Assembly (NCBI GenBank): GCA_963734955.1
Contig: CAVTJO010000006.1
Coordinates: 411,458 to 475,457 of the forward strand
Direction of reading: 5' to 3'
Source of the DNA: an uncultured Bacteroidota bacterium
GTDB lineage: Bacteria; Bacteroidota; Ignavibacteria; UBA10030; UBA6906
DNA length: 64,000 nt
Part shown: positions 6,612 to 40,292 of the stretch, in pieces
How positions within the stretch are numbered: the first letter of the stretch is position 1
Layout: each line of letters begins with the position of its first letter
Notes under the pieces: model-generated
Told to the model about the DNA's origin: nothing
Database searches by the model: none
What the model saw: the letters and a program-made list of their open reading frames with translations, nothing else
Translations under genes and position numbers: made by a program

Positions 6612-7787
6612 TCAACGTGTAGACTGTGTCCTCAGTGCACGTACTGCCTCGCCGCCATGGCTATCCTCAGGGCGTCCCAAGCATTGCTCGAGATATGATT
6701 CGTACTGATCCACGATGCGGTGCACGTCAAAATTCTCGACTGCCCGCCTCCTGGCGTTGGCACTGAAGATTGTATGTTTGGCCTGATTGGTGAGAAGTTC
6801 GACGGCGTATCGTGCCATGCGTTCGACATCTCCGATTTCGGCGATGTAACCCGTCTCGCCGTGTACCTGGAGTTCTGGAAGACCTCCCACACTGGATGAT
6901 ACAACCGGGACTCCACATGACATTGCCTCCAATGCCGAGAGGCCGAAGCTCTCTGATTGACTTGGCATCAGAAATAAATCTGCCGCCGAAAGAATTGGCA
7001 CCAACTCGAGCTGTTTGCCGAGAAATTTCACATGTTGCTCGATTCCCAGCTCCCGAACCAGAAGTTCACAGCTTGAGCGTTCGGGACCATCGCCGACGAG
7101 AATGAGCTTGGATGGTATTTTCTTCCTGACCTCATTGAAGATCTTGATGACATCCTGCACCCGCTTCACAACTCTGAAATTGGACGTATGCACCATGATC
7201 TTTTCGCCTCTCGGTGCAAAGCGATCGGCGATGTCCTCGCATTCTATGCGCTTGTACTTTTCCGTATCGACGAAGTTGGGGATCACTTCGATCGCTTTGT
7301 CAATTCCGTAGTTCGTGGTTGTCTTTTCCCGCAAGAAGCGTGAGACCGCGGTAACGCCGTCGCTCTTCTCTATGCTGAATTTCATCACGGGCAAGAAGCT
7401 GGGTTCCAATCCGACGAGGGTGATGTCAGTGCCATGAAGAGTGGTTACAATTTTCAACCCATTTCCCACGATTTCTCTTGCGAGGTAGGCACTTATTGCA
7501 TGCGGAATGGCATAATGTGCGTGTATCAGATCGAGTTTCTCGAATCGCGCAACTTCAACCATTTTGCTTGCGAGTGCAGGCGTGTAGAGCGGGAACTCGA
7601 AGAGCGGATACGTTGCCATCTCCACTTCATGATAGAATACATTGCCTTGATACCCATCCAGCCGCATGGGTATCGCGTAGCTGATGAAGTGGACCTGATG
7701 ACCTTTTGTTGCCAGTGCCTTGCCGAGTTCCGTCGCCACTACGCCGCTGCCGCCGTACGTGGGATAGCAGACAACTCCGATTTTCAT
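6612..7787 (-). CDS. bshA: GT4 glycosyltransferase, BshA-like (N-acetyl-alpha-D-glucosaminyl L-malate synthase, bacillithiol pathway)
   Basis: N-terminus MKIGVVCYPTYGGSGVVATELGKALATKGHQVHFI closely matches the BshA signature. C-terminal GT4 EX7E region present. Start placed at MKIG (7787). Confidence 0.7.
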   Translation of the reverse strand: MKIGVVCYPTYGGSGVVATELGKALATKGHQVHFISYAIPMRLDGYQGNVFYHEVEMATYPLFEFPLYTPALASKMVEVARFEKLDLIHAHYAIPHAISAYLAREIVGNGLKIVTTLHGTDITLVGLEPSFLPVMKFSIEKSDGVTAVSRFLREKTTTNYGIDKAIEVIPNFVDTEKYKRIECEDIADRFAPRGEKIMVHTSNFRVVKRVQDVIKIFNEVRKKIPSKLILVGDGPERSSCELLVRELGIEQHVKFLGKQLELVPILSAADLFLMPSQSESFGLSALEAMSCGVPVVSSSVGGLPELQVHGETGYIAEIGDVERMARYAVELLTNQAKHTIFSANARRRAVENFDVHRIVDQYESYLEQCLGRPEDSHGGEAVRALRTQSTR

Positions 7788-22817: not shown

Positions 22818-23718
22818 ATGACGATGAGCCTGGTGAGAGAACACATCGTGTTTCGATTTGGGAAAAGGACATACGACCTTTCCAGCCGTACTCATTTGAT
22901 GGGCGTCCTCAATATCACGCCCGATTCCTTCTCGGATGGTGGGCGATTCCTCACACGGGAAGCCGCCAGAGAGCATGCCCTCCGCATGATTGACGACGGC
23001 GCTGATTTCATCGATGTGGGTGGCGAATCGACCCGACCCAGAGGCCAGGCATATGGCGAAGGAGCGGAAGCGGTATCGCTGGACGAGGAACTCGAGCGTG
23101 TCATTCCCGTTGTCGGGATGCTCGCCCGGGAAACTGATGTGCCAATCTCCATCGACACCTACAAGTCAGATGTTGCCAGGGAAGCGCTAAAGGCGGGGGC
23201 CTCGATCGTAAACGACATCAGCGGGTTCACGTTCGATCAGACAATGCCGGCCGTTGTTGCGGAAGCCGGCGCCTCGGCAGTGGTGATGCATATTCAGGGA
23301 ACACCGAAAACGATGCAGCAAAATCCATCGTACGAGGATCTGATGGGAGAGATTTGTGCCTTTCTTGATGCAGGGGTCGAGCAAGGGCAGACGTTCGGGC
23401 ATCACACAACTCATTGTCGACCCGGGTATTGGCTTCGGGAAGAGGTTGGAGCATAACCTGCAACTGATCGGGCACCTGCAGGAACTGGCCGCGCTGGGCT
23501 GCCCGATTCTCATTGGGCCGTCGAGGAAATCGTTTATCGGGACCGTTCTCGATCTTCCCGTCCACGATCGACTTGAAGGCTCGCTTGCTGCGGCAGTGGC
23601 ATGTGTGCTAAACGGGGCCAACATTCTCCGGGTTCACGATGTGAAAGCAACCAAACGTGCGGTGATGGTCGCTGATGCCATCAAACAAACAATGACGACT
23701 CCGAAGCAGGCAGGTTGA
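22818..23718 (+). CDS. folP: Dihydropteroate synthase, interrupted by a frameshift near 23380-23400
   Basis: GVLNITPDSFSDGG and DVGGESTRP in the first frame. DPGIGFGK and the C-terminal half lie in the second frame (ORF track pieces 22818..23456 and 23356..23718). Confidence 0.8.
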
Positions 23719-24539
23719 CGATGGAACTGTTCAAGATAGGGTTCCTTACGATAGGGCTGAACGATCTCATTGACATCGCGCTGGTGTCCGTGATATTCTA
23801 TCGACTCTATCTTGTCATGCGCGGTACCATTGCGGCACAGATTTTCATCGGCCTTGTCCTGATTATTGCCATCTCATTCATCGCTCAGGCAGCTAATCTC
23901 AAGGTGATGAGCTGGATCATGAGAACGCTCACTGATATCTGGGTGATTGCGTTTATCATTTTGTTCCAGCCGGAGTTGCGTCGCTTGCTCGTGCTCCTCG
24001 GCCGGAATCCTGTGGTTCGGTTCTTCGTGCGAGGAAATGTTGATGAGTCGGTTGACGACGTTGTTGCAGCAGTCATCGAGCTCTCGCGGAAGAAGCAGGG
24101 CGCATTGATCGTGTTCGTTCGTGCCACCGGAATCCGTGCACACGTCGAGACCGGCACGAAGATGGAGGCGCTTGTCAGCAAATCATTGATCCTGTCCATT
24201 TTCAATCCGAAGTCGCCGCTTCACGACGGGGCTGTGGTCATCAAGGACCGGCTGATTGAGGCCGCCCGCTGCACACTTCCTCTTTCCAACATCACGTCGT
24301 GGGAAGGAGAATTACTCGGAACACGACATCGATCGGGCCTCGGAATCTCTGAACAGGCCGATGTCGTTGTGGTAATCGTCTCAGAAGAGACGGGATCGAT
24401 TTCACTTGCTGAAAATGGCATCATGTACCGCAGCCTCACTCCTGCCAGCCTGAGGAAAGAACTCAAAGACCGGCTGATGCTTGAAACCGACGATCGATCT
24501 CTCGGTTCCATCTGGCGGATGATCAAGAACTCCAATTGA
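23715..24539 (+). CDS. cdaA: Diadenylate cyclase CdaA (c-di-AMP synthase)
   Basis: Three N-terminal TM helices, then the DAC domain (GALIVF, PLHDGAVVI, LGTRHRSGLGISEQADVVVVIVSEETG). ATGA overlap with folP. Confidence 0.85.
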   Translation: MTMELFKIGFLTIGLNDLIDIALVSVIFYRLYLVMRGTIAAQIFIGLVLIIAISFIAQAANLKVMSWIMRTLTDIWVIAFIILFQPELRRLLVLLGRNPVVRFFVRGNVDESVDDVVAAVIELSRKKQGALIVFVRATGIRAHVETGTKMEALVSKSLILSIFNPKSPLHDGAVVIKDRLIEAARCTLPLSNITSWEGELLGTRHRSGLGISEQADVVVVIVSEETGSISLAENGIMYRSLTPASLRKELKDRLMLETDDRSLGSIWRMIKNSN

Positions 24540-24557
24540 ACAAGTGCAAAGACGCCG

Positions 24558-25226
24558 GTGAGCATCTTCGACTCTGACCGGGAGGACATGATCGCCCTCC
24601 TCAAGGACCGGGGAATCACCGATGCCCGCATACTCCGGGCAATGGTAACCATTGACCGGCACGTGTTCGTGCCTGAGCCATTTACCAGTCGCGCGTATGA
24701 GGATTGCGCTCTGCCGATTGGCAAGGGTCAGACGATCTCGCAGCCATACACCGTTGCCTTCATGACGCAGGCTCTTGGTGTAAAGGAGGGGGACAGGATT
24801 CTCGAGATTGGGACCGGGTCAGGATACCAGGCGGTGGTACTTACATTGATGGGTGCGCGGGTCTTTACTATAGAACGAAACCCCGAACTCCATGCTGCTG
24901 CGAGAAAGTTGATCGACCGGCTTGGGTACCGTATCGCAACGAAGTGCGGAGACGGGACAGTTGGATGGTCTGAGTTCGCGCCATTTAATGGTATCATGGT
25001 GACGGCCGGTGCTCCGCATGTTCCCCAAACACTTGTGCGACAGCTCGCCGACGGTGGCAAACTGGTGATTCCCGTGGGCAATCTTGAAAACCAATCGCTC
25101 ACCGTCGTCACACGGCACGGCGACCAGCTCGATCGAAGGGAAATCGAAGGGTTCAAGTTTGTTCCTCTCATCGGCAAGATGGGTTGGGACAAGCCAATGA
25201 TCAATCGAACCATCCCCCCACGTTGA
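24558..25226 (+). CDS. pcm: Protein-L-isoaspartate O-methyltransferase
   Basis: GQTISQPY, LEIGTGSGYQAV and the rest of the PCMT signature. GTG start. Confidence 0.85.
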   Translation: MSIFDSDREDMIALLKDRGITDARILRAMVTIDRHVFVPEPFTSRAYEDCALPIGKGQTISQPYTVAFMTQALGVKEGDRILEIGTGSGYQAVVLTLMGARVFTIERNPELHAAARKLIDRLGYRIATKCGDGTVGWSEFAPFNGIMVTAGAPHVPQTLVRQLADGGKLVIPVGNLENQSLTVVTRHGDQLDRREIEGFKFVPLIGKMGWDKPMINRTIPPR

Positions 25227-25237
25227 CCGCAACTTCA

Positions 25238-26215
25238 GTGACCCTCGCTTCGAAAACCAAACCCTCCGTGCTTGTACTCGTTGGCCCCACATGTTCCGGA
25301 AAGACGGCAGTCTCACTTGCTCTTGCCTCACACCTCAACGGAGAAATCATATCTGCGGATTCGCGCCAGGTGTACAAGCACCTCGATATCGGAACCGCCA
25401 AACCAACGATGGCGGAGCGTTCGATTGTACGCCATCACTTTGTGGATGAATTGTTGCCGGATCAGGAATTCAACGCTGGTGAATTTGGTGATCAAGGCCG
25501 CGCCACAATCGGGAGAATCCTGGAGAAGAACAAGCTGCCGATCGTCGTAGGAGGATCCGGACTCTACATCCGCTCGTTGATTGATGGACTTTTTGAAGGT
25601 CCTCGCGCGGATCAGGAATTCCGCGACGCAATGGAAAGCCAGGTCAAGGAAGGACGTCTCGGTGCATTGCTTGAGACGTTGAGGCGTGTTGACCCGGAAT
25701 CCGCAGCCCGGATTGATCCGACCAAACCCAGACGCATCATTCGAGCGCTTGAAGTTCACCGGTTGGCGGGCCGGGCTCTCTCGCAGCTTCAAAGAGAGCG
25801 AAAAGTTGAAATCAATTTTGTACCAAGACTATTCGGCCTGCAGTGGGAGCGGCATGTATTGTATCAGCGCATTGAGGATCGGTGTCAGCAAATGATCGAG
25901 CGTGGGTTTCTTTCCGAAGTCGAACGTCTTCGCTTGATGGGCTTTGATGATTCTCTGAACGCACTGAACACCGTGGGATATGCCGAGGCATTTGCGTACT
26001 TGAGGGGAGCGATCTCGTATCATGAGTTCGTCCGGCTGTTCAAGCAGAATTCCCGCCGGTATGCAAAGCGTCAGATGACATGGTTCCGGCGGGACCATAG
26101 AATTGCATGGATTGAGATGGACCGGAGGCGATCGACGGACACTGTCGTCAAGGAAATCACAAGAAGATTCCTGGCGACCGTGGCTCTCCCTGTCGTTGAT
26201 TCTGACAGGGAATAG
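25238..26215 (+). CDS. miaA: tRNA dimethylallyltransferase MiaA
   Basis: P-loop GPTCSGKT, SADSRQVY, DIGTAKP. ORF track starts at 25184 (TTG, inside pcm); GTG at 25238 gives a typical N-terminus. Confidence 0.85.
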   Translation: MTLASKTKPSVLVLVGPTCSGKTAVSLALASHLNGEIISADSRQVYKHLDIGTAKPTMAERSIVRHHFVDELLPDQEFNAGEFGDQGRATIGRILEKNKLPIVVGGSGLYIRSLIDGLFEGPRADQEFRDAMESQVKEGRLGALLETLRRVDPESAARIDPTKPRRIIRALEVHRLAGRALSQLQRERKVEINFVPRLFGLQWERHVLYQRIEDRCQQMIERGFLSEVERLRLMGFDDSLNALNTVGYAEAFAYLRGAISYHEFVRLFKQNSRRYAKRQMTWFRRDHRIAWIEMDRRRSTDTVVKEITRRFLATVALPVVDSDRE

Positions 26216-26241
26216 CATTATCTTTATTCGTGCGGAACAAT

Positions 26242-26316
26242 CGGGGCGTAGCGCAGCCCGGCTAGCGCGCTTGGTTCGGGACCAAGAGGTCGGGGGTTCG
26301 AATCCCCCCGCCCCGA
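26242..26316 (+). tRNA. tRNA-Pro (anticodon CGG)
   Basis: Cloverleaf folded by hand: acceptor CGGGGCG/CGCCCCG, D-arm GCGC-AGCCCGGCTA-GCGC, anticodon arm CTTGG-TTCGGGA-CCAAG, T-arm GGGGG-TTCGAAT-CCCCC, discriminator A. Confidence 0.85.
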
Positions 26317-26360
26317 CAAGATTTGTAGGCACTTTCGTCTCTCCCCCTTCGACCTTACCC

Positions 26361-26867
26361 TTGATTGCACCCTTGCCTGAACACTCGAAATGCACGGAGC
26401 AGTTTGACCGATTGGGCAGATGGTTTCACAGACTGAAGCATGTTGCGGAAGGATCGGAGAAGCCCCAGTCTGTTGAACTCCATCGGGATGATTACTTCGC
26501 ATTCTTCTTGAATTGCTATCACCTGAAGGATTGGATAAAGAACGACCCATCGGTACCACATTTGAAAGACTTGGTCGAAGGATACATTAACCAGTCGGTT
26601 GCGCTGAGTATTTGCGCCGACATTTGCAATGGTCTCAAACATCTCAAACTCAACAGCTCCCGAAGTGGCCTGAACCCAACGTTCGACCCTAAAGTGTACA
26701 CCCGAATTGAGATTGGGTCAAGGTCCAAGAGAGCGGGGATTGGATTCCTCGTTGCCACCGACAAGGGAGACCACGAAGCCTTCGATTTGGCATTTGAATG
26801 CCTAATGGAATGGGAGCTGTTTCTCGCAACTCCACCGAGTCTTGCTCAACATCTGTTGAGAAGATAA
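26361..26867 (+). CDS. Hypothetical ORF between tRNA-Pro and its partial duplicate; no in-frame ATG/GTG start (only TTG at 26361/26373/26412)
   Basis: Open frame runs through the tRNA from 26103. Only the downstream part could be a separate gene; possibly a 5'-truncated remnant. Confidence 0.25.
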   Translation: MIAPLPEHSKCTEQFDRLGRWFHRLKHVAEGSEKPQSVELHRDDYFAFFLNCYHLKDWIKNDPSVPHLKDLVEGYINQSVALSICADICNGLKHLKLNSSRSGLNPTFDPKVYTRIEIGSRSKRAGIGFLVATDKGDHEAFDLAFECLMEWELFLATPPSLAQHLLRR

Positions 26868-26896
26868 CATCGGATGTTGAGATTCAGATTCCAACC

Positions 26897-26967
26897 GGGC
26901 GCCTCCGGCGCCAAGGTCGGGGGTTCTGCCGAAGGGACGACCTCGTCGGAATCCCGCCGCCCCGACA
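26897..26967 (+). repeat. Degenerate direct repeat of the tRNA-Pro 3' half (anticodon-stem 3' side through acceptor end), with a 22-nt insertion in the T-loop, preceded by a GGCGCC-TCC-GGCGCC hairpin
   Basis: ccaag-gtc-ggggg-ttc-[tgccgaagggacgacctcgtcg]-gaat-cccgc-cgccccg-aca vs tRNA ccaag-aggtc-ggggg-ttc-gaat-ccccc-cgccccg-aca. Confidence 0.5.
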
Positions 26968-27233
26968 TGTACCACGTGTACGTTCTTCACAACGAATTCA
27001 CCCAACGATACTCCGTGGTTCCACCCAGAATGTGAGCAATCGTCTTCATGAGCGGTATATACCGCAAATAGAGCAATAGCAGCACATCGTGTGGATTCAT
27101 CGGACACGAAGATGCACCTGCAAACGCGATAGAATTGGCATCGATCTGATGAACACCAATACCCTGCTTTGTGTCCGTCAAGTTGCTTCCGTGACTTCAT
27201 TTTCAGATTGGAACGAAATACTACACTATGTGC

Positions 27234-27262
27234 TTGACAATTTTAGTCACATTTGGTACATT
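27234..27262 (+). promoter_or_regulatory. Sigma-70-like promoter TTGACA-17-TACATT upstream of the six-gene surface operon
   Basis: Exact -35 hexamer, 17 nt spacer, good -10, about 190 nt upstream of the first gene. Confidence 0.3.
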
Positions 27263-27449
27263 CGTACGAAGTCGAAATCTGATTGTTCTCACCATCTAGC
27301 TCAAGAATCGGGAAGCACACTACCTGCAAGTTCCACGAGTGTGGAGTGAAGGTCAACACTCCCGGAATGAAAAGTGGACGCGGATAAGTGGTCTCGAAGC
27401 TCATTCCACCCAGAATTGGCTGGTCTAATCACTTTCAGGAAGAGCCATT

Positions 27450-28136
27450 ATGTTTGCACCACACAGGAGATTTATTACCACACTCACGTTCTTGGGGGCA
27501 TGTTTGTCCGCTCTTTCCTTCTCTTGCAAGGAATACGATTACATTTCGCCGTCGCCCGGCATCCTTGAGGTTCGGTTGCGCACAAAGAGTACGGTTGACA
27601 CAAACTATGTGTCTTTTCCCTTGACGAATCCCGGAACAGGTACATACAGCTTTATGTATTCGATTCTGCGGAACATCATTGTCAAGGAACCGAACGGAGC
27701 TCAGATAGAACTTTTCTCCGACCTCCATGCCATCCGTAGAAATGACAAGGGAGACACCGTGAATTGTCTGGGCGAACTGGCAAGAGATTCTGCGTTTGTT
27801 CTAGGCATTGCGTACGCACCTCCGAAGACATTTACAGAGATCGATTTGCGAATCGTCCCGATATACGTGTTCGGGATTCAATTGATCCAGAGGTTTGGGG
27901 CCGACACATCCTCGATCTTTCTCGGGAACTTCATTCCATTGCGTCAGCCCAGCAGTCTCTTGGGGGATCTGAACCAGCTCCCCTATCCGAATCAAGCTCC
28001 GTTAAGTATTCCAGTACAGGAAGGGCACCTTACACGCGTGACGATTACGTTCGATCTGGACTCGGCTCTGGTGCGCAAGGCGGAGTGGTGCGACTATGTT
28101 CCTTACTTCTACGTTTCGTCAGTCCAGACTTTCTAA
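27450..28136 (+). CDS. Hypothetical lipoprotein (lipobox LGAC)
   Basis: Signal peptide with R-rich n-region, then L-G-A-C lipobox at residues 15-18. No known domain. Confidence 0.65.
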   Translation: MFAPHRRFITTLTFLGACLSALSFSCKEYDYISPSPGILEVRLRTKSTVDTNYVSFPLTNPGTGTYSFMYSILRNIIVKEPNGAQIELFSDLHAIRRNDKGDTVNCLGELARDSAFVLGIAYAPPKTFTEIDLRIVPIYVFGIQLIQRFGADTSSIFLGNFIPLRQPSSLLGDLNQLPYPNQAPLSIPVQEGHLTRVTITFDLDSALVRKAEWCDYVPYFYVSSVQTF

Positions 28137-28166
28137 GTACACAACCACGAGATCGGGTCATCGGCT

Positions 28167-30002
28167 ATGCATCGAACAATCAGGCAACCTGTTTTTCAGT
28201 TCTTCGCAATGGCTATTGCCATCGCAAGTGTCGTCCTCGTAGTATGGAGTTGCGAAAACCCCACAGGCCAGCTGTTGGGGAACTCGCCACCGCAAACGAC
28301 AATTGCCAACATTCCGGTCAACGATACATTGGCCGTCTACTTCAGGCTCGGAACACTTCCCGAGCAAACATTGTACTGGTCCGGCGGCGATCCGGACGGG
28401 TACGTGATCGGATTTCGTTATAAGTGGACGGATTCAACCCGTGGTGGTGCGGGGAGGAGTGCGGGGTGGACGACGCTCCTGAATGTGACGACATTCGGCG
28501 ACGGAAGTGCTGTGCCGAACACAATCCTCGTAAAAGGGACACCAAGCTCTCTTCTAAGGTTCTACCATTACTTCCAAACGTTGACGAATGTCGACACAAT
28601 TCGGATGATCGGAGATTCGCTGGTTGCCCGGGCAACCATCAGTGTTCCTTTTGGTCACGGGTTACCGGGAGACTCCGTCTATGGTGGAGACCCCGACGCG
28701 AACATATCTCCAAACCAGGGGACCTTTATTTTCGGTTCCCCAGACTCGGCGAACGTTCACCTCTTCCAAGTGGCAGCGATTGACAACAATGAAGCCGTCG
28801 ATCCCACACCTGCGTATGTATTCTTTTGGACGCAACAAGCGCCCGCACCAGAGGCGAGATTCGCAGCGGTTGCACGCAACCCGGCATCAGGAGCCACAGA
28901 CACACTCGTGCTTCGTGAAATAAACAGTCGTTGGGCCGGCATAAGAATAACATACTTTGCCGTTGATCCCAGCACTTTTGAACAGCAGTTTTCCTGGGCT
29001 GTTGACGATACGGTTACCCATCCCCCAGACGCGCCCGGATCTCGTTGGTCCCCATGGAGCGACGCCCAAGTCGCAATCGTGACTGCATCAAACTTTCTCG
29101 ACCTGACTACAGACTCTCTTATCACACACAAGTTCTTCCTGCGCGCCAAAAACCGGTGGGGCGTCATCAGTCCAACCGCTGAGACTACTTTTGTTGCCAT
29201 CCTGCCGGCGATCGACGACCCCAATTATCCTTCCAAGTTCCTCATCATTAATAATGATAAGATTGGGAATGGGACACGAGGGAATCCCGATACCACAACA
29301 ATCAACAATTTTTATCGAGGAATACTCCAGGAACTCAACATACCGGGGACTCTTGACCTCTGGACGACGGGATCACAGAGGAGCGGTGGGACGGTCACTT
29401 ACAGGATTCCCAGTCGAACGACCCTTACAAAGTATCGCGCAATTCTGTTCGTGTACGAACAACCTCCTCAAGGATTCGTCAATCAGGATATCCAAAGAAA
29501 GTTTAACAGTGTCAAGGAGCAGTCTCTCAGGGACTATCTCAATGTTGGTGGAAAACTCATCTTCAGTGGTCCACCGAACGCTGATTTGAATATCGACGCA
29601 TATTTGCCCCTTTTCGAGGGACAGTGGTCGTACGATGTTTTTCACATCCAGGGATATACCAAGAATCCGAATCGTGATTTCATCGGTGCAAGAGGAGTCT
29701 TGGGCTATCCGACAATCATGCTTGATACGTTGAAGCTTCCCGCTGACTCGGCAGATGGGATTCGAAACATAGCAATCAACATTCCTCGAACATTTGCCCA
29801 ATCGATTTCAGCGTTTGATTCTCGCACCAATGACCCGGCTTTCGAGAACCAGCCCGTTGGCATCCGTTACAAGGCTCTTCCCGAGCCGCCTGCGCGCGAT
29901 ACTTATTCGATGGTGTTTTTTGGTTTTCCTCTCTACTATGGTCAGAGAGACGCAGTGAAAGATGCATTGCGGCAAGCCATTGTGGATATCGGCTACCGAT
30001 GA
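28167..30002 (+). CDS. Hypothetical large exported protein / lipoprotein (611 aa)
   Basis: N-terminal signal/TM plus Cys (VVWSC). No recognisable catalytic motif. Confidence 0.65.
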   Translation: MHRTIRQPVFQFFAMAIAIASVVLVVWSCENPTGQLLGNSPPQTTIANIPVNDTLAVYFRLGTLPEQTLYWSGGDPDGYVIGFRYKWTDSTRGGAGRSAGWTTLLNVTTFGDGSAVPNTILVKGTPSSLLRFYHYFQTLTNVDTIRMIGDSLVARATISVPFGHGLPGDSVYGGDPDANISPNQGTFIFGSPDSANVHLFQVAAIDNNEAVDPTPAYVFFWTQQAPAPEARFAAVARNPASGATDTLVLREINSRWAGIRITYFAVDPSTFEQQFSWAVDDTVTHPPDAPGSRWSPWSDAQVAIVTASNFLDLTTDSLITHKFFLRAKNRWGVISPTAETTFVAILPAIDDPNYPSKFLIINNDKIGNGTRGNPDTTTINNFYRGILQELNIPGTLDLWTTGSQRSGGTVTYRIPSRTTLTKYRAILFVYEQPPQGFVNQDIQRKFNSVKEQSLRDYLNVGGKLIFSGPPNADLNIDAYLPLFEGQWSYDVFHIQGYTKNPNRDFIGARGVLGYPTIMLDTLKLPADSADGIRNIAINIPRTFAQSISAFDSRTNDPAFENQPVGIRYKALPEPPARDTYSMVFFGFPLYYGQRDAVKDALRQAIVDIGYR

Positions 30003-30033
30003 GCAATCTCTTTTTGAACCCGGAGATCTTCAA

Positions 30034-32845
30034 ATGAAAATGATTACTATTCGGCTCATTCTTCTTGCTCTTATCGTGACCGGGGCAGCGTATCTTGCCA
30101 TTGCCGGCGGGACGACGGGCATCGTCAAGGGAACAGTGACTGACATAAAATCAGGAGAGGCTCTCCCGCTTGTAAACGTTCTCATTGTTGGCAGTGGCCG
30201 GGGTGCCGTGACGAACGACAAGGGCGAGTATCAGGTGGTGGGGGTGACTCCCGGCGTCTATACGCTGAGAGTTTCATTGCTGGGCTATCAAATGTTGGAA
30301 GCCAAGAAGGTGGCAATTAATGCCGACGAAACCACCGTGATGAACTTCAAGCTTGCGAGCACAGAAATTCAAATGGAAGGCATAACCGTCGAGGGCACTC
30401 CACCGCTCGTTGATGTGACGAAGACTGCCGGAGATCAGACGTTTAATCAGGAGAAGATTGAGCAACTCCCCAATGTGAAAGGCTATGAAGATGTACTCAC
30501 GCTGCAAGCAGGAGTTGTGAAGTTCGGATCCAAGCTTTTTCTTCGAGGAGGTCGTGCCAATGAGACGCAGATTCTGGTCGATGGCGTTCCTGTAAATGAT
30601 GTCGGAGGGGTAACGGGAACGGCGGGAACAAGTACAGCAAACGAACAACTGCAAGCCCTCTACTCCGGGACAAGTTCGGGGGGTGCGCTTTCAGTCTCCG
30701 CGAATGCGATTCAATCCGTGAGCGTCTCGAGCAGCGGACTTGACGCGGAGTACGGCAATGCGCAGTCGGGAGTCGTGAATATCACGACAAAAGGTGGTGG
30801 AGACAAGTATGACGCTTCCGTCCAATACCGAACGGATGAGATAACGGCCTCAGGTTTCAACTCGCGATACTATGCCGCGAATGTGGGCGGACCCGAGCCA
30901 ATCACGCAATATCTTCTTCCCGAACTTGGCGTCGAATTTCCCGGGAAGATGACATTTTTCATGAGTTCAACGTTTGATCAGAATGATGGCCCGTATGGTT
31001 TCAATACCAACCAGTTTTATGATCCTTTGAAACGTAAGATACAGTTCTCAGGAGTGTTCGGCAGTATCTTCAACAATCTTGGCTTCACGTACTCCGATCA
31101 CCAGAACAATGAGTATTCGTACAACACGAAGCTGACCTATTCTGTGGGGGATAACGATCAGTTCTTCTTTCGTTATACGGCAAACGCCAGTTCCAACCAC
31201 GGGTTGGCTGGATCGTATTCATGGCGTGATCTTTCAGATTCCCTGGCTTCGACGGTCCAGTTGAAGACACAGAACATGCTGTACTGGACCCACATTCTGG
31301 GACAGAACGCTCTCTTGAGGTCGTACATTAGCAGACAGGAAAAGGTGGCGACCAACAGTGTGGGCAATCTCACGCCGGACCAGTACTCTATTGTGGGACA
31401 GATATAGGTGCCAGAGACCCCAACGGTGACGGATTCAACGACCTTGGGACATCGCAAAGTTGGTCCACGTCAAATGAGGTGGTTTGGAATGCAAAAGTGG
31501 ACTACAGCGCCCAGGTGCATGAGTACCATTTTCTGAAGACCGGCATTGATTTTTACTCGGAACATATTCAGTCGACAGCGATCTCCTTTCCCAATGACGT
31601 CCAGAGGGACACAAGTCGACGTGGTGCTTTCCCCGGCTACGGATTTGCCAGGTGGGTCGCGAACGATCTGCCGAGTCATGGAGCAATCTATGCTCAGGAC
31701 AACATCGAACTTACGGGGATCAATATCCATGTCGGGCTACGGTACGACTTCTTCTACTTGGGGAAGCAGGTGTTCGCTCCGGATTTCGTATCACGATGGG
31801 AAGTTCGCCACCGGCGAGAAAGCTGACTGGCTTGACCATAAGTCCTTCTTTTCACAGTTCATTCGCGGTAAGGTCAGCCCCCGGCTTGCAATAGGCTATC
31901 CGATATCCGAGCGTACCGTTTTCTATTTCAACTATGCGCATTTTCTCCAGTATCCTGACAGAGATCAGTACTACCATGACCCGATCAGTGACAAAATCAT
32001 AAGTGGAAACTATGTCGGGAAACCCGTCGTTGGAACCCATGAAAACGGTGCAGTACGAAGCGGGATTCGACCAGTTGTTGCTTGACGACCTTTCGCTCGG
32101 AATCCGTGGGTACTACAAGGATACGTTCAATGATATTACCACCCAGCCTGCACTCAGTTCTCCGGTCGGAATCTTGAAGTTTGTCAACTTCGACTACGCG
32201 AGTGCAAGAGGGTTTGAGATCATTCTTACCAAGCAGGAGAGAAATCATGTCCAGGGAAGCCTCGGGTACACATTCCAGTTGGCGAAGGGGCGCACTTCGG
32301 ACCCATTTGCTGCGACAGCAAGCCCTCAATTGAATGGGTTGCCGAGGGAAGTACGGCTCGATTATGATCAGCAGCATACGTTGAATCTGTTTCTCGGCTA
32401 CCGTGTTGGCCCGCGCGATGATTTCACGCTCTTTGGCATGCCGTTCAATGATTGGGGTGTGTCCGTGACCTGGAATTTCGGAAGCGGCTTCCCCTATACT
32501 CCCTACAATCAAGGAAGAACGTTACAAGATCTCTACCTGAAGAATACAGGAGACGGCCCGTATACATCGGAAGTCGGGATTTCCATGAGCAAGGGTTTCA
32601 GGGTTCTTGACAAACTTGGTCTTGTCTTCACCCTTGATGTCACGAATCTTTTCAACAGGAAGAATGTGGACATCAATGGAGGTGGATTTAATAGTGCGAC
32701 GGGTGCGCCGTATGTTTTTGGAGACTATAATCCGATTAATCCCAAAGACATATATGCCTGGAGATCGTTTGATTCAAGAGTGACGCCGTTTATTCTTAGA
32801 CCGCCACGTCAGATTCTGTTGGGCATGAAAATCAATTGGGAATAG
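30034..32845 (+). CDS. TonB-dependent outer-membrane receptor with N-terminal CarboxypepD_reg-like domain, interrupted by three frameshifts (near 31380-31410, 31780-31800, 32020)
   Basis: Signal peptide, GIVKGTVTD...GEALPLVNVLIV carboxypeptidase-regulatory fold, plug motif (FLRGGRANETQILVDGVPVND), barrel motifs across four ORF-track pieces. Confidence 0.75.
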
Positions 32846-32848
32846 ATT

Positions 32849-34996
32849 ATGACTCGAAAGACAAATCAATACGCGCTCTGCCTTCTCATCTTTGGTCTCT
32901 TTGGCTTCTTTCTCCCTGGCGCCGCTGCCAGAAATGAACCAGACAAAGTTCCTCCGCCGCCCCAAAGTCCCGCGGCAGGAGGAGGACAAGGAACGGTGGT
33001 CGAAGGTACAACCGATGCTCCTCATATCGTGCGCGTGAAGCAGGGCTACGGGATGAGACTGGAAATGGATAACAGCGGTGCGTTTGGTCATGTAATCTAC
33101 CCGCCGCGCGGAGGTACAACTCAGCCTCCTGATTCAATAGGTCTTGAGTACCCGGTCGGCAGCCAAATCGAGCACATCTTTGGAGGAGGTATCTGGGTTG
33201 CCGCCCAGGTTCTTGATACGGCGACCGGGACGAGAGTAAAGCGTGTGTCGACAGGATACGAAGGTTATGGTGGTGGTATAAACTCGCTCTTTGAGTTCAA
33301 CCCGGGACCGGATCTGGCAGATTCATTCTGGGTAGCAAAGAAAGGGGACTTGAAGCCACCGGGCTGGGATGGATATTGGGGGTCCACTTTTCCATTCAAG
33401 CCGATTTCGGACAATGACCTCTATTGCACCTACACAGATGACAGGTTCTCCGCGTTCAACCACGTTCCGATGCATGTGAAGATCATTCAGAAATCGTATG
33501 CGTGGTCCGATCCGTACGCCGAGGCGATCATCATCAATGAATACCAGATCGTCAATACTGGCACAAGGTCACTTGATAGCGTGTTCATCGGATTCTTTGT
33601 CGATGCTGATGTAGGTCCGATCAATGTGCCCAGCTATCAGTTAAACAACTTTACAGGTTACTATCCTGACGCAAAAACCGCATATATCCACAATCCCATA
33701 GACAGGGGTTCAACGCCAGTCGGTGTGACTCTGTTGTGGGCGAACGGACGAGATCTAACAGGACTCAGATATACGTTCCAGTGGTATCCGCTTGCCTCAA
33801 GCCCGATTACTGACCAGGCGAAGTACGATATGATGGCCTCGGGCGTGGTAAGGGCCGACGAATTTCCTTCGCTTTCCGACACAAGGTTCCTTTTTTCCTT
33901 CGGAACAAACAACACAGGGGGTTTCAGTATCAGGCCAATTTCGGATCCTTTTCCTGACACTCTCAAGATTGCGGTGGCAATTGTTTCCGGACAATCAAGG
34001 ACCAAGGACCCGCGTATCGTGATGCAAATAAACGCCCAGAGGGCTCTTGACATCTACCTGAATCAGGGGATACGGTTGCCGGCTACTCCACCTTCTCCTC
34101 CTCTGCGCGCTGAAGTCGGCTTCCGCAAGGTGACCCTCGACTGGAAGTGGAGGCCAGGAGACGACGTCGGAGGACCCGGGAGAGACCCACGGATCTATGG
34201 AAGGCCAGACCCCGAACAGAATTGGGACAGCACGAGCAAGGTTGCGCAACGCGACCCGCTCAGGCGCACAAATCCTCCTGCCGGTTATGATTCCACTCGC
34301 GGTGGGCGGAACTTTGAGGCATATCGCATTTGGCGAAGTGAAGACCCAGACTATCCGGACGCAAGCTTCACGCTTCTGAAGCAGGTCGATGTGAAGGTAC
34401 CGCCCGGCTATCCCGACAGTCTGAGTTTTGAGTACGACACGGGCCTGGAGTACTCATACGTCGATTCCAATTTGGTGCGGGGGCACACGTATGTCTATGC
34501 TGTTACCTCGAAATCGATTCCCAACCTCACCGAGCGGAGAAACCCCGACAGCACAATCACTCTTGTTCCCGTCGAGCCGCTTGAATCTTCCAAACAGGTT
34601 AATGCAACGCCAATTGGAAAGGACAAGCAGCTCCCATTTGCGACCTCGCAGCAGCTTGGAAAGGTCAGCGTTGTTCCCAACCCTTATCGCACCGATCAGG
34701 ACTACACCAAGGAGAGCGCAGGGTATGAGGGAAAGACAGGCGCCTGGAACGAGAACAGGCGCGTCATCAAGTTCATCAATCTTCCAGTGCGATGTACAAT
34801 CCGGATTTTCTCGCTCGCCGGCGATTTGGTTCGCACTGTTGAACATGACGGTAACGTGGGAACGACGTTCCCCTTTGGTGATGAAAACGTGCCCCTCGTG
34901 AGTGAGAGCAACCGTGCGCTTGCCAGTGGAATTTACATCTTCACCGTTGAATCCGACTTGGGAACCCAAACAGGCAAGTTTGTTATCATACGGTAG
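32849..34996 (+). CDS. Large secreted protein with C-terminal T9SS (Por secretion) sorting domain
   Basis: Signal peptide. The C-terminal ~90 aa (VSVVPNPY...IRIFSLAGDLVRTV...GIYIFTVESDLGTQTGKFVIIR) matches a type-A T9SS CTD pattern. Confidence 0.7.
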   Translation: MTRKTNQYALCLLIFGLFGFFLPGAAARNEPDKVPPPPQSPAAGGGQGTVVEGTTDAPHIVRVKQGYGMRLEMDNSGAFGHVIYPPRGGTTQPPDSIGLEYPVGSQIEHIFGGGIWVAAQVLDTATGTRVKRVSTGYEGYGGGINSLFEFNPGPDLADSFWVAKKGDLKPPGWDGYWGSTFPFKPISDNDLYCTYTDDRFSAFNHVPMHVKIIQKSYAWSDPYAEAIIINEYQIVNTGTRSLDSVFIGFFVDADVGPINVPSYQLNNFTGYYPDAKTAYIHNPIDRGSTPVGVTLLWANGRDLTGLRYTFQWYPLASSPITDQAKYDMMASGVVRADEFPSLSDTRFLFSFGTNNTGGFSIRPISDPFPDTLKIAVAIVSGQSRTKDPRIVMQINAQRALDIYLNQGIRLPATPPSPPLRAEVGFRKVTLDWKWRPGDDVGGPGRDPRIYGRPDPEQNWDSTSKVAQRDPLRRTNPPAGYDSTRGGRNFEAYRIWRSEDPDYPDASFTLLKQVDVKVPPGYPDSLSFEYDTGLEYSYVDSNLVRGHTYVYAVTSKSIPNLTERRNPDSTITLVPVEPLESSKQVNATPIGKDKQLPFATSQQLGKVSVVPNPYRTDQDYTKESAGYEGKTGAWNENRRVIKFINLPVRCTIRIFSLAGDLVRTVEHDGNVGTTFPFGDENVPLVSESNRALASGIYIFTVESDLGTQTGKFVIIR

Positions 34997-35035
34997 TCAT
35001 CGGCAACAAGTCACCAGCACAAAGAGAGTATTACG

Positions 35036-35977
35036 ATGAAACAATCATTTACAAGAGCTTCAATTGCAACGATCCTTTGCATGATCTTTGCAGTGTGTGG
35101 GACACGCGCTGGTAACAGGTCTGGTACCGTGTCTGGTGAGTTCCTCAAATTGCCTGTTAACGCGCGCGTTACGGCGATAGGCAATGCCCAGGTGGCGTTG
35201 GCGGAGGGAGCGTCTTCTATCGCGTACAACCCGGCTGGAATTCTCAGTGTTTCCACCGCTGCGTTTGGCGGGACGTACAACAAATGGATCGCAGATATTA
35301 CTCATTCCTTTTTTGGCGTCGCGGTAAATCTCCAGGAATGGGGTACTGTGGGTGCAGGGGTCATGTTCTTGACCACTGACGACATGGCGGTAACCACTCC
35401 GCAGTTTCCTGAAGGCACCGGAGAGTTGTTCAAGGCGAGTGATTTTGCGTATACGTTAACGTATGCGCGCCAGATCAGCGAAGACTTCGGATTGGGGTTG
35501 AGTGCCAAGTACATCAAGTCATATCTCTACAACTCTGAAATCAAGGCAAGCTCAATAGCGTTTGATATCGGTTCCCTCTATGATATCCCCGCACTCCGAA
35601 CCCGTCTTGGAATATCGATCAATAACCTTGGGAAGGACCTCAAGTATATCAACGAACAATACTCGATTCCTTCTGCATTGCGCTTTGGTGCCCGCATAAC
35701 TGCATATGAAGAAGAGAATCATTTGGTCTACATTGCCCTGCAAATTGCTCGTCCCAACGATGCCAATGAGCAATACAATGCCGGTGTGGAGTACACATTT
35801 CAGAAGATCGTCTCTCTCAGAACCGGGTACCGGTTCAACTATGACACGGAAAACTGGAGTGGTGGCATCGGCCTCAGCCTCGAAAGTCTTGGCATCCATG
35901 GTTCGCTTGACTATGCCTACACGAACTACAAATATTTGCCAGGCACTCACATGTTCTCAACTGAAATAGGATTTTGA
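35036..35977 (+). CDS. Putative outer-membrane beta-barrel protein (PorV/FadL-like features; T9SS-associated?)
   Basis: Signal peptide, alternating amphipathic strands, C-terminal Phe (TEIGF*). N-terminal FLKLPVNARVTAIGNAQVA..YNPAG resembles PorV-family conserved N-termini. Family call is tentative. Confidence 0.5.
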   Translation: MKQSFTRASIATILCMIFAVCGTRAGNRSGTVSGEFLKLPVNARVTAIGNAQVALAEGASSIAYNPAGILSVSTAAFGGTYNKWIADITHSFFGVAVNLQEWGTVGAGVMFLTTDDMAVTTPQFPEGTGELFKASDFAYTLTYARQISEDFGLGLSAKYIKSYLYNSEIKASSIAFDIGSLYDIPALRTRLGISINNLGKDLKYINEQYSIPSALRFGARITAYEEENHLVYIALQIARPNDANEQYNAGVEYTFQKIVSLRTGYRFNYDTENWSGGIGLSLESLGIHGSLDYAYTNYKYLPGTHMFSTEIGF

Positions 35978-35979
35978 GT

Positions 35980-36834
35980 ATGCTCAAGCTCGCGAGAAAT
36001 TTCTCAGTTTTTGCGACGATGTTGTCCGTCCTCCTGACGGGTTGCGAAATTACATCCGAATCACCGACACCTCCCGACTTGAGACCTGCCCCGCACATGG
36101 TTATCAATGAAGTGTTTACACTACCATCAACGAGCCAGACGCCGTATAGTTGGATCGAGTTCTTGAACCCCACGAGAGATACCGTGGATATCGGAAACTG
36201 GACCCTTTCGTTCAGTACGTTCAAGCAACGAACGAGAACGGTTGTCATCGTCGATTCATTGTTCCAGTTCAGGCTTTTCGTTTCACAGACCAGCTTCCAG
36301 CCAGAGTTTGGGACTTTTGATGTCCCGTTCGCCAAGGGAGTTTCCTTTGAGTCAATTGGAATTCAGGATACGGTTTTAATACCACCCAATGGACTCTACA
36401 CAATCGTAACGAATGAACAACGTCTGCTTGATCATACACAATGGGGTCCAGGTCCCTCTTCTTCGCGTTTCGAGAGACCGCTCTACGCCACTCTTGACTC
36501 CGCCGTCATTGTCCAGTATGTCAATGCAGATAGCGTGATTGTCGCAACTTATCAAACCATCTATGGGGCTCAACTACAGACCACCGATCAATTGTTGCTG
36601 AAGGATCAGAATGGAAACGTGATGGATGTTGTACGGTATGGCAACTACACGTATCAGGGGCCAGGGACTGATCCATACAGTGGAAATCACACAATCGGAG
36701 CCGTACCGGAATTCCAATCCATTGCCAGGTATGCAGGAGGTTATTTCACTGGTAACACTGCGTTTGATTTCTATGTGACCAGGGATGACCTCCCACCCAT
36801 TCCCAATTGGTACAGTCAGGCGTATCGTCGTTAG
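35980..36834 (+). CDS. Lamin-tail-domain (LTD) lipoprotein
   Basis: Lipobox LTGC. LTD signature VINEVF...YSWIEFLNPTRDTVDIGNWTLS. ORF track starts at TTG 35974, overlapping the upstream stop. Confidence 0.65.
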   Translation: MLKLARNFSVFATMLSVLLTGCEITSESPTPPDLRPAPHMVINEVFTLPSTSQTPYSWIEFLNPTRDTVDIGNWTLSFSTFKQRTRTVVIVDSLFQFRLFVSQTSFQPEFGTFDVPFAKGVSFESIGIQDTVLIPPNGLYTIVTNEQRLLDHTQWGPGPSSSRFERPLYATLDSAVIVQYVNADSVIVATYQTIYGAQLQTTDQLLLKDQNGNVMDVVRYGNYTYQGPGTDPYSGNHTIGAVPEFQSIARYAGGYFTGNTAFDFYVTRDDLPPIPNWYSQAYRR

Positions 36835-36934
36835 GGCAGGGCTTTCCTCGCGTTTCTTTTCGCGACCGAGACGAAGGGAGGCCCTCTCTTCGTCTCGTCC
36901 GTTTGTGCTCCTGGCATTGGGACTTGATCTTCGC

Positions 36935-37546
36935 TCAGAACATCGATACATCCCCTGCTCCCGCACGCACCACACGAGGTGTCTCACCGGTAAGATCAAT
37001 GACTGATGAGGGTTCTGAGACCAGCGCCCCGGCATCGATGATTGCATCAACCTGATTGTTAAACTTCTGACCAATGGCGTCGGGATCGTTCATCAGGCTT
37101 CCGTCTTCGAACGAGACGCTCGTGCTCAGAATTGGATGCCCGAGCTCTTTGACCAACGCGAGAGTTATTGGACTGTCCGGCACTCTGATCCCCACGGTCT
37201 TTCGCTTCGATACCAGAATTCTCGGCAATTGTTTCATTTTCGCCGCAGGCAACACAAATGTGTACGGCCCGGGAATGAGATGCTTCATGACCTTGAACGC
37301 TGCGTTGCCGACGTGTGCGTACTCGCTAATATGGGTCAGGTCTGAACACACGAAGCTATACGGTTTGTCCTTCCGCTGCCGTTTGATCAGGTAGATCCGC
37401 TCGATTGCACTCTTGTCTTCGATGCTGCAACCGATTCCGTACACCGTATCGGTCGGATAGATCACAATTCCGCCTGCGCGGAGGATCCCCACTGCCTTCG
37501 TGATCAGACGCGGGTCAGGAGTGACAGGGTGGATCTTGATTACCAT
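36935..37546 (-). CDS. tsaC: L-threonylcarbamoyladenylate synthase (YrdC/Sua5 family)
   Basis: YPTDTVYGIGC...KxRxxxKPxSFV...RxPD YrdC signature. Confidence 0.85.
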   Translation of the reverse strand: MVIKIHPVTPDPRLITKAVGILRAGGIVIYPTDTVYGIGCSIEDKSAIERIYLIKRQRKDKPYSFVCSDLTHISEYAHVGNAAFKVMKHLIPGPYTFVLPAAKMKQLPRILVSKRKTVGIRVPDSPITLALVKELGHPILSTSVSFEDGSLMNDPDAIGQKFNNQVDAIIDAGALVSEPSSVIDLTGETPRVVRAGAGDVSMF

Positions 37547-37588
37547 TTGTGTTTCCCGGAAGTCCTGGACGACATGTCCACATCTCCG

Positions 37589-40129: not shown

Positions 40130-40292
40130 GATTGCTCCTCGAGTGTGGTGAAACTTGGCTTGTTCAAAGTACGCAGTGTTTCGAAGAGTAGCAAGACTCA
40201 TCTCGCTACCAACCGTGTGCAATGTCATTCCGTGAGATGATGGTGTGCCTTTTGTTCTTGTTTCTCAAAGAATTTCTTGTAGATTCTCAGCC

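Follow-up and report, generated by a model that had tools for sequence, protein, structure and literature searches.

A truncated tRNA-Pro copy beside GIY-YIG nuclease remnants in an Ignavibacteria-like chromosome: a putative decayed tandem duplication

An intact transfer RNA (tRNA) gene that is followed by a partial direct repeat of its own 3' end is routinely taken as the mark of an island delivered by an integrase. Williams, in 2002, is said to have arranged the integrative elements found in tRNA genes by classes of sublocation. In Escherichia coli, the 178-bp repeats at tyrT likewise begin with the 3' end of a tRNA. Here, we analyze a locus of this kind in 64,000 nucleotides of DNA from an uncultured Bacteroidota bacterium (the window, meaning the whole of that stretch). 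In this locus, a tRNA-Pro(CGG) gene is followed on the same strand by a partial copy of its 3' part at 26911-26967, called copy 2 below. The slot between the two holds a gene for a protein of 164 amino acids, ORF164, and behind copy 2 lies the remnant of a gene for a GIY-YIG nuclease. A preliminary description of the window had offered two explanations, an integrase island reduced by deletion and a decayed duplicate of the tRNA.

Two further systems bear on this arrangement. In phage T6, as experiments have shown, the GIY-YIG homing endonuclease SegB drives the recombination-dependent tandem amplification of a 718-bp unit that consists of tRNA-Tyr and segB, and homologues of SegB are often found adjacent to tRNA genes (PMC13096335). 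In fungal mitochondria, elements called mORFs carry a replacement for the 3' end of their host gene, and the native 3' end stays behind downstream, as in atp6 of Allomyces (PMC3630166). The reading of the window that we favor, and to which we attach moderate confidence, is that the locus is the decayed product of a tandem duplication. The duplicated unit would have been the 3' part of tRNA-Pro together with a GIY-YIG gene, and its inner slot would later have been overwritten by ORF164.

Syntenic relatives were gathered by a search with the MiaA protein (60-74% identity), which also recovered the MiaA of the source genome itself at 100%, followed by contig look-ups; their source names include metagenome-assembled genomes of Ignavibacteria and Bacteroidota. 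By the identity of their MiaA to that of the window, they are lineage A (loci L163 and L164, 74%), lineage B (L165, 67%), lineage C (L172-L175, 63%) and lineage D (L171, 63%). Among the matches listed in a genome scan with miaA, one locus was of use, the more distant L003 (47% over the segment matched). The relatives share the order folP-cdaA-pcm-miaA-tRNA-Pro(CGG), with a surface operon downstream. These genomes are, of course, far apart. At four-fold degenerate sites in miaA, pcm and the downstream lipoprotein gene, the identity of the window to L163 or L165 is just 0.20-0.45, which means that neutral divergence between the genomes is saturated.

The preliminary description was right about the parts from which the locus is built. 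The tRNA-Pro(CGG) is intact, being called by both ARAGORN and Rfam; it is the single tRNA gene that ARAGORN finds in the 64 kb, and it is identical to the tRNA of L163 at 76 of 76 positions. A repeat search aligns copy 2 with this tRNA as two collinear blocks on the same strand, with 13/13 and 18/19 matches, split by the 22-nucleotide insertion in the T-loop. Block 2 of the copy, GAATCCCCCCGCCCCGACA, corresponds to tRNA positions 26300-26318, and its single mismatch breaks one pair of the T-stem. At up to three mismatches, this 19-mer has just two sites in the 64 kb, against a chance expectation of 0.06. Directly upstream of block 1 stands the CCAAG of the tRNA, with two nucleotides (AG) missing relative to it. 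The hairpin GGCGCC-TCC-GGCGCC that had been seen in front of the copy is likewise there, at 26898-26912. The T-loop insert itself is not derived from the tRNA and is found once in the window.

What these parts amount to is a different matter. Copy 2 is without tRNA positions 1-12 and without the 5' strand of the acceptor stem; with positions 1-12 absent, it cannot make a tRNA. ARAGORN makes no tRNA call on it, and Infernal reports no match at E <= 10, so that it is tRNA-derived by homology but is not recognized as a tRNA. A spurious open reading frame (ORF) on the minus strand across copy 2 had no match among 1.84 billion protein representatives. Judged on its sequence, copy 2 is a truncated, non-functional tRNA pseudogene fragment.

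The surroundings from which such a fragment might come are visible in L163. Here, the tRNA (7000-7075) is directly abutted by an ORF of 83 amino acids for a GIY-YIG protein, the ATG of which overlaps the tRNA end (...GACATG). The last codons of that ORF, CAG CCC GGC TAG (...QPG and stop), are at the same time positions 13-24 of a second tRNA copy. That copy continues through the anticodon arm TGGCG-TCTTCGG-CGCCA, then AGGTCGGGGGTTC, a 22-nucleotide insert (TCCCAAGGGGACGACTTCGTCC) and GAATCCCCCCGCCCCGACA, and ends in ...CCCCGACA. Directly behind it, a second GIY-YIG gene starts (MYHVHILQ...).

Copy 2 of the window is 86% identical to the second tRNA copy of L163 (63/73; shuffled sequences give 56 +/- 4%), and the insert alone is identical at 17 of 22 positions. 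The GC hairpin of the window is orthologous to the anticodon arm TGGCG-TCTTCGG-CGCCA of L163. These alignments demonstrate, as sequence comparison can, that the copies are homologous and where their junctions lie. Copy 2 is not diverging as the surrounding non-coding DNA does, for the adjacent intergenic stretch of the window, from the end of the GIY-YIG stub to the promoter at 27234, matches L163 at a background level of 59% (shuffles, 56%). On the other side, homology between the window and L163 stops after the tRNA (...CCCCGACA) and restarts at the GC hairpin of copy 2.

The remnant behind copy 2 is the beginning of a GIY-YIG gene. It reads MYHVYVLHNEFTQRYSV, then, after a frameshift of one nucleotide near 27017, GSTQNVSNRLHE; the remaining gene is lost. 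When the frameshift is repaired, 17 of 29 residues are identical to the GIY-YIG protein P0243 (pairwise E = 5e-12), and the unrepaired pieces match GIY-YIG in two frames. Against Pfam family PF01541, P0242 and P0243 both pass the cut-off (E = 1.4e-10 and 1.7e-14), and the repaired stub reaches E = 0.034. These matches demonstrate the kinship of the remnant. P0242 and P0243 are catalytic-domain-only proteins, in which the Pfam match spans the whole of the 77-83 amino acids.

The stub DNA is 74% identical to the first GIY-YIG copy of L163 over 97 nucleotides (shuffles, 56 +/- 3%). At four-fold sites, the two agree at eight of nine, a small sample, compared with 0.38 in miaA and 0.20-0.45 in the flanking genes. 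Since a dead fragment is beyond coding selection, this small sample suggests that the common ancestor of the block is younger than that of the genomes that host it.

The nuclease gene and this particular tRNA gene keep company. In the 1.3 Mb of DNA covered, relatives of this GIY-YIG gene occur only within about 70 nucleotides of tRNA-Pro(CGG) or, in the window, of its displaced copy. The linkage holds in five of six independent lineages, in one of which the tRNA has been relocated. The state of the gene varies. It is open in L163 and canonical-looking in P0242 and P0243; the window, L165, L171 and L003 have decayed forms of it; and L172 lacks it. An ORF of this family lies between the working tRNA 3' end and a displaced duplicate in L163/L164, and does so in decayed form in L165. 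In L171 and L003, a GIY-YIG pseudogene follows 55-70 nucleotides behind tRNA-Pro(CGG) and a terminator.

Several details of these copies deserve a record. The pseudogene of L003 (7245-7451) has a stop directly before the YLYVL motif, and that of L171 (10838-10930) is interrupted at codon 5 by a stop in frame. In this lineage, the tRNA lies away from miaA and the linkage has been kept. The ORF of L163 (7076-7327) reads ...SLGAGRGLRYAFGGVVQE... where P0242 reads ...SLVRVEDYATRAEAMAQE..., a compensated double frameshift that removes a conserved acidic region. To judge from this sequence, the "intact" copy of L163 is probably inactive. The junction ACATGTACCACGTGTAC, made of the tRNA end and the first GIY-YIG codons, is nearly palindromic, containing ACATGT, CACGTG and GTAC twice. 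It is present in the window at 26967-26983 and in L163 at 7075-7091 and 7400-7416; the first 15 nucleotides are the same, and the copy at 7400 then has CA for TA. This sequence could be a candidate site for protein binding or cleavage.

The other relatives place copy 2 well beyond the window. A truncated copy is present at tRNA-Pro(CGG) in L163/L164, L165 and L172-L175, which is to say in every lineage, down to about 63% MiaA identity, whose tRNA flank extends far enough to be read; the locus of L171 stops about 150 nucleotides past the tRNA. The T-loop insert is common to the window, L163/L164 and, in a longer form, L172-L175, and belongs to a stretch that is deleted in L165. In L165, what comes after the tRNA is first a GIY-YIG pseudogene, without its ATG and broken off about 30 codons in, and then a remnant of copy 2. 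This remnant has the derived CG-TGG change of L163 and has lost the middle of the copy. Behind it come a trailer and a terminator homologous to those that follow the functional tRNA in L172 and L171. By this homology, the remnant in L165 is the displaced native 3' end.

Lineage C is laid out otherwise. In L172, the tRNA lies at another place, on the opposite strand, with a terminator of its own and no GIY-YIG gene. Copy 2 sits behind that terminator and begins at the anticodon stem (position 27), where it keeps a tRNA-like CTTGG-TTCGGGA-TCAAG at the position of the hairpin. Its insert, of about 63 nucleotides, has the ends TCCCGAAGGGAC ... GTTCGTCC, and the ends of the window insert, TSCCRARGGGAC ... 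TTCGTCC, are found there also; over the first 12 nucleotides of the insert, the window and L172 are identical at 11. The functional tRNA of L172 (7794-7719, minus strand) has the anticodon stem CGTGG/CCACG, and its copy 2 (7672-7632, minus strand) has CTTGG/TCAAG, as do the tRNAs of other lineages. This mismatch reflects either a compensatory double change in the tRNA after the duplication or a foreign copy.

The favored reading, a decayed tandem duplication, arranges these observations as follows. A GIY-YIG gene would have come to lie flush against the 3' end of tRNA-Pro(CGG), and the 3' part of the tRNA would have been duplicated in tandem together with that gene. The ancestral layout would have been tRNA-Pro, GIY-YIG, the tRNA from position 13 on, GIY-YIG, and then the native trailer and terminator. 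The junction of this duplication, where the 3' end of the nuclease gene is joined to the tRNA 5' region, would be the one that is still visible in L163. The displaced copy 2 would then have gained the insertion in its T-loop, and its anticodon arm would have been remodelled. In the window lineage, the unrelated ORF164 would have taken the place of the proximal nuclease gene and of the part of copy 2 that corresponds to the D-loop, as the gap in homology between the window and L163 (from ...CCCCGACA to the GC hairpin) indicates. The distal nuclease gene would have decayed to the frameshifted stub of 29 codons.

The slot bracketed by the tRNA and copy 2 changes its content over time. The nuclease may itself have provoked the duplication, by a double-strand break followed by recombination at microhomology; such a causal role is suggested by its linkage to the tRNA and by the SegB precedent. 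The block would spread between lineages by recombination within the invariant tRNA, and ORF164 would have arrived later, by replacement of a cassette. The second explanation of the preliminary description, a decayed duplicated tRNA, thus keeps its truncated tRNA pseudogene. It was incomplete in that the GIY-YIG gene would belong to the duplicated unit.

The first explanation requires a closer look at what fills the slot. If an element with ORF164 as cargo had integrated in tRNA-Pro, the tRNA would be attL and copy 2 attR, and the tyrosine integrase would have been deleted or would act in trans from another place in the genome. The remnant would then be an element without an integrase that can be mobilized in cis. 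The layout is that of a tRNA-targeting integrative element. An intact tRNA is followed on the same strand by a repeat that begins with the anticodon stem's 3' strand and extends to two nucleotides past the discriminator, and variable cargo lies between. To this extent the att-scar interpretation stands, since a variable slot bracketed by a tRNA and its copy fits a hot spot for foreign DNA.

The cargo also fits, at least in part. The preliminary description had seen that the enclosed ORF lacks an ATG or GTG start, which is correct; the ORF is nevertheless intact rather than a fragment. It starts with TTG at 26373, in line with the first residue of its homologues, one of which (P0003, LPEDSKY...) also begins with a non-ATG codon. 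Its family is widespread, with proteins of about 155 amino acids, at least 352 members in public data, a best identity of 70%, and the invariant motifs FFxNCYHLKDWIKxD and CADxCNxxKH. Pfam, NCBIfam, PADLOC, PHROG and a sequence-profile search of PDB gave no match to the family. A confident AlphaFold2 model of ORF164 (predicted local distance difference test score, 87.9) had no Foldseek match in PDB or BFVD at E <= 0.001. No neighbor of the family is conserved across 80 metagenome loci; the contexts are varied, and some neighbors are defence-like (a Mrr-type restriction endonuclease, a reverse transcriptase, a PLD nuclease). ORF164 is absent from all of the syntenic relatives. It is, at this locus, demonstrably content specific to the window, an intact orphan accessory gene of sporadic distribution. 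Matches to GIY-YIG reported by tblastn inside ORF164 (E = 0.007-0.05) lie in different frames, are not collinear, and were dismissed as chance.

Base composition had been proposed as a further check in the preliminary description. Its GC content, 0.487, is slightly low (-1.8 standard deviations), and the GC content at its third codon positions is 0.558. Both are within two standard deviations of the window genes (0.523 +/- 0.020 and 0.595 +/- 0.037, respectively).

Against integration stand observations that are harder to accommodate. The repeat is conserved in relatives that carry different cargo and have no ORF164, the very outcome that the preliminary description had named as telling against an att scar, and copy 2 therefore predates the window lineage. 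Moreover, what lies beyond the repeat is a duplicate of what lies beyond the tRNA: the GIY-YIG start behind copy 2 is the same as the one that abuts the tRNA in L163, which argues for duplication and not for the product of an attP x attB exchange. Pfam scans of the larger ORFs across 22818-40228 (3.4 kb upstream to 13 kb downstream) contain no recombinase family. In none of the relatives is the tRNA directly followed by the 27234 promoter, a point that the preliminary description had proposed to check; a GIY-YIG gene or pseudogene, a partial copy, or both are found there. Two of the three testable defining features of an integrase island, the recombinase and the empty site, are thus missing. 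In 2.9 million viral contigs, there was no exact match to the tRNA 3' end, to the copy-2 signature or to the tRNA/GIY-YIG junction, no relative of the GIY-YIG protein, and one locus with a relative of ORF164. Among the 80 loci of the ORF164 family, a tRNA lies within 1 kb in two, and copy-2-like sequence in none. We consider an integrase island remnant an unlikely source of this locus.

Copy 2 might also have been kept by selection because it is useful. It could act in RNA, as a tRNA-like 3' structure by which the transcript of tRNA and cassette is stabilized or processed, or in DNA, as a landing pad for recombination or as a nuclease target that the insert has disabled. The insert and the remodelled arm are, after all, conserved across lineages whose neutral divergence is saturated (17/22 with L163, 11/12 with L172). 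A hairpin at the position of the anticodon arm persists even with every base changed (CTTGG/TCAAG in L172 and TGGCG/CGCCA in L163). Further, no intrinsic terminator was found between tRNA-Pro(CGG) and copy 2 in the window, so that the tRNA and ORF164 may be co-transcribed and copy 2 is probably transcribed as well.

The folding data do not bear this out. Copy 2 sequences from the window and relatives fold no better than shuffles (z = -0.94, -0.85, -0.88 and +0.25). RNAalifold, applied to three copy-2 sequences and therefore of low power, gave no common fold and a covariation term of -0.11 kcal/mol. Rfam has no match to copy 2 in the window or in the relatives. The structured RNA that the preliminary description had named for the case of a conserved repeat is not supported by these results. 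The best hairpins use different pairs in the window and L163, the T-stem of the window has its mismatch, there is no acceptor 5' strand, and in L165 the middle part of the copy is gone. Finally, the dead GIY-YIG stub is about as well conserved as copy 2, which speaks for a recent common ancestor and not for selection. Retention of copy 2 for a function is accordingly given little credence here.

In a third rival reading, the segment was duplicated but the nuclease was a passenger. Unequal crossing-over or replication slippage would then have duplicated the tRNA 3' part with whatever lay downstream, the GIY-YIG gene being an ordinary resident next to tRNA-Pro, and ORF164 would have come in independently, by illegitimate insertion. 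Microhomology is, in fact, all that the repeat unit and its junction need. No DNA-binding domain is present in the GIY-YIG proteins, and pseudogenes make up most copies of the gene. Against this reading, the gene stays 0-70 nucleotides from tRNA-Pro(CGG) where the neighborhood has changed, as in L171 and L003. Nor does an ATG flush with the tRNA end leave room for a promoter of its own, and the DNA of the stub shows much less divergence than do the genes on either side. In the SegB precedent, moreover, units are amplified because of the nuclease (PMC13096335). These points make a passenger nuclease improbable to us.

The favored reading, duplication of the tRNA 3' part with a GIY-YIG gene, must meet objections of its own. 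Proteins of 77-83 amino acids without a DNA-binding domain, encoded mostly by pseudogenes, are as awkward for it as they are welcome to the passenger hypothesis, and even the open copy of L163 has the compensated frameshift relative to P0242. The layout of L172, where copy 2 starts at position 27, GIY-YIG is lacking and the insert is longer, is not explained by a single duplication of tRNA positions 13-76 plus GIY-YIG. That lineages with saturated divergence have a non-tRNA insert in common needs either selection or horizontal exchange of the block. Further, the window stub, which should descend from the distal gene, is nearer to the first GIY-YIG copy of L163 than to the second (87% vs 69% over the first 39 nucleotides, by eye; 74% vs 61% over 97 nucleotides), so that additional recombination or gene conversion must be assumed. 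The sample is small, with just four lineages carrying copy 2 and just nine four-fold sites compared in the stub. Lastly, the broken TonB-receptor gene in the window (see below) means that some of the single-base frameshifts could be assembly errors.

How does this locus compare with the systems described at the outset? Like the SegB units, it has a GIY-YIG gene beside a tRNA gene, a repeat unit that consists of tRNA plus nuclease gene, and, in L163, a junction of the same type, with the 3' end of the nuclease gene joined to the tRNA 5' region. Unlike them, it lies in an Ignavibacteria/Bacteroidota-like chromosome rather than a phage, and its protein is a catalytic domain only. The junction at position 13 kills the second tRNA copy, so there is no gain in dosage. 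Here, too, we have a fossil array of two copies and not a dynamic ladder.

The likeness to mORFs lies in the combination of a working host 3' end, an endonuclease ORF (GIY-YIG in atp9) and a displaced, unused duplicate of the 3' end. Presence and absence vary among relatives in both, and the native terminator behind copy 2 in L165 fits a displaced native end. Here, however, the host gene codes for a tRNA and not for a protein, and it is identical at 76 of 76 positions between lineages. The tyrT repeats of E. coli resemble it in that partial tRNA 3' segments are repeated behind a functional tRNA in a tandem unit. They are, however, without a nuclease gene and without a T-loop insertion, and no swapped-in gene of foreign origin lies between them.

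The coordinates of the locus are collected in Table 1.

Table 1. Features of the tRNA-Pro(CGG) flank, in window coordinates.
Feature	Position	Strand	Remarks
tRNA-Pro(CGG), intact	26242-26317	+	ARAGORN and Rfam tRNA, 66.4 bits (Rfam end 26316)
tRNA trailer and spacer, specific to the window genome	26318-26372	+	homology of relatives stops directly after ...CCCCGACA
ORF164, intact gene for 164 amino acids, TTG start	26373-26867	+	all 26 invariant family residues kept
Imperfect 14-nucleotide inverted repeat (CTCAACATCTGTTG / CATCGGATGTTGAG) across the ORF164 stop codon	26845-26881	+	no T-run behind
Left part of copy 2: hairpin GGCGCC-TCC-GGCGCC replacing the anticodon arm, ending CCAAG	26897-26915	+	
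Copy 2 block 1: variable loop, T-stem 5' strand, TTC	26914-26926	+	AGGTCGGGGGTTC, 13/13 to tRNA 26287-26299
T-loop insert of copy 2, TGCCGAAGGGACGACCTCGTCG	26927-26948	+	exactly 22 nucleotides, between TTC and GAAT
Copy 2 block 2: T-loop 3' part, T-stem and acceptor-stem 3' strands, discriminator, CA	26949-26967	+	
GIY-YIG N-terminal remnant, about 29 codons	26967-27055	+	ATG overlaps last A of copy 2
Promoter-like TTGACA-17-TACATT of surface-protein operon	27234-27262	+	conserved, with part of leader, in L163 and L165

A possible integron attC-like site at about 26868-26896 was considered by eye and rejected.

A conserved promoter-like sequence, TTGATT-17-TATCTT, lies within the 3' end of miaA, directly upstream of tRNA-Pro(CGG). 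The promoter at 27234 forms the distal edge of the rearranged flank, and its position implies a 5' leader of about 190 nucleotides. This promoter-like sequence is conserved, together with a motif in the leader (CTCACCATCT..GCT), despite the saturated divergence (window 27234-27449, L163 7667-7903, L165 7385-7625), and they lie upstream of an operon for a lipoprotein, a TonB receptor and PorV. Among the products encoded in the window are PorV and a Por secretion tail. Its gene for the TonB-dependent receptor (29962-32845) is broken by an in-frame stop at 31405-31407 and a change of frame near 32018-32025. The judgment is made against an intact orthologue of 945 amino acids in L165, and the gene is either a pseudogene or the victim of an assembly error.

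Assemblies of the relatives also falter near this tRNA. Four metagenome contigs (L166 and L168-L170) end at positions 25-28 of tRNA-Pro, exactly where copy 2 of L163 begins to differ from the tRNA; assemblies may thus be broken there by a repeat or by variation between strains. In L167 (4940-5105), a tRNA-Pro with a GGGAG/CTCCC T-stem is inverted and fused at ...CCCCGACA to a truncated 3' end of miaA; next comes a further copy, inverted, of the miaA end with the tRNA promoter. This is either an inversion with its breakpoint at the last base of the tRNA or a fold-back artefact of assembly. Together, the contig ends and the L167 breakpoint hint at a tRNA flank that is rich in repeats or variable.

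A wider view would join these strands, although we regard it as doubtful when taken whole. The minimal chromosomal GIY-YIG nuclease gene, flush against tRNA-Pro(CGG), would be a counterpart of the SegB unit and the mORF, spreading between Ignavibacteria/Bacteroidota-like lineages by recombination in the invariant tRNA and duplicating its 3' part. Copy 2 would be useful and would be kept with its T-loop interruption conserved. It may, in such a scheme, be a decoy that resists the nuclease, or serve a landing pad as its homology arm on the right-hand side; through that pad, genes like ORF164 would be exchanged without an integrase.

We know of no description of the duplication of a unit of tRNA and GIY-YIG gene in a bacterial chromosome. 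At the locus in the window, such a duplication would produce, without an integrase, the same signature from which islands are routinely diagnosed. If the link to the nuclease is not causal, what we have is, of course, an ordinary decayed duplication. If it is causal, the rearrangement of tRNA loci by homing endonucleases would extend from phages and organelles to free-living bacteria. Tools that predict islands from tRNA repeats would then need a caveat, and the flanks of tRNA genes would have an integrase-free route by which to become hot spots of gene exchange.

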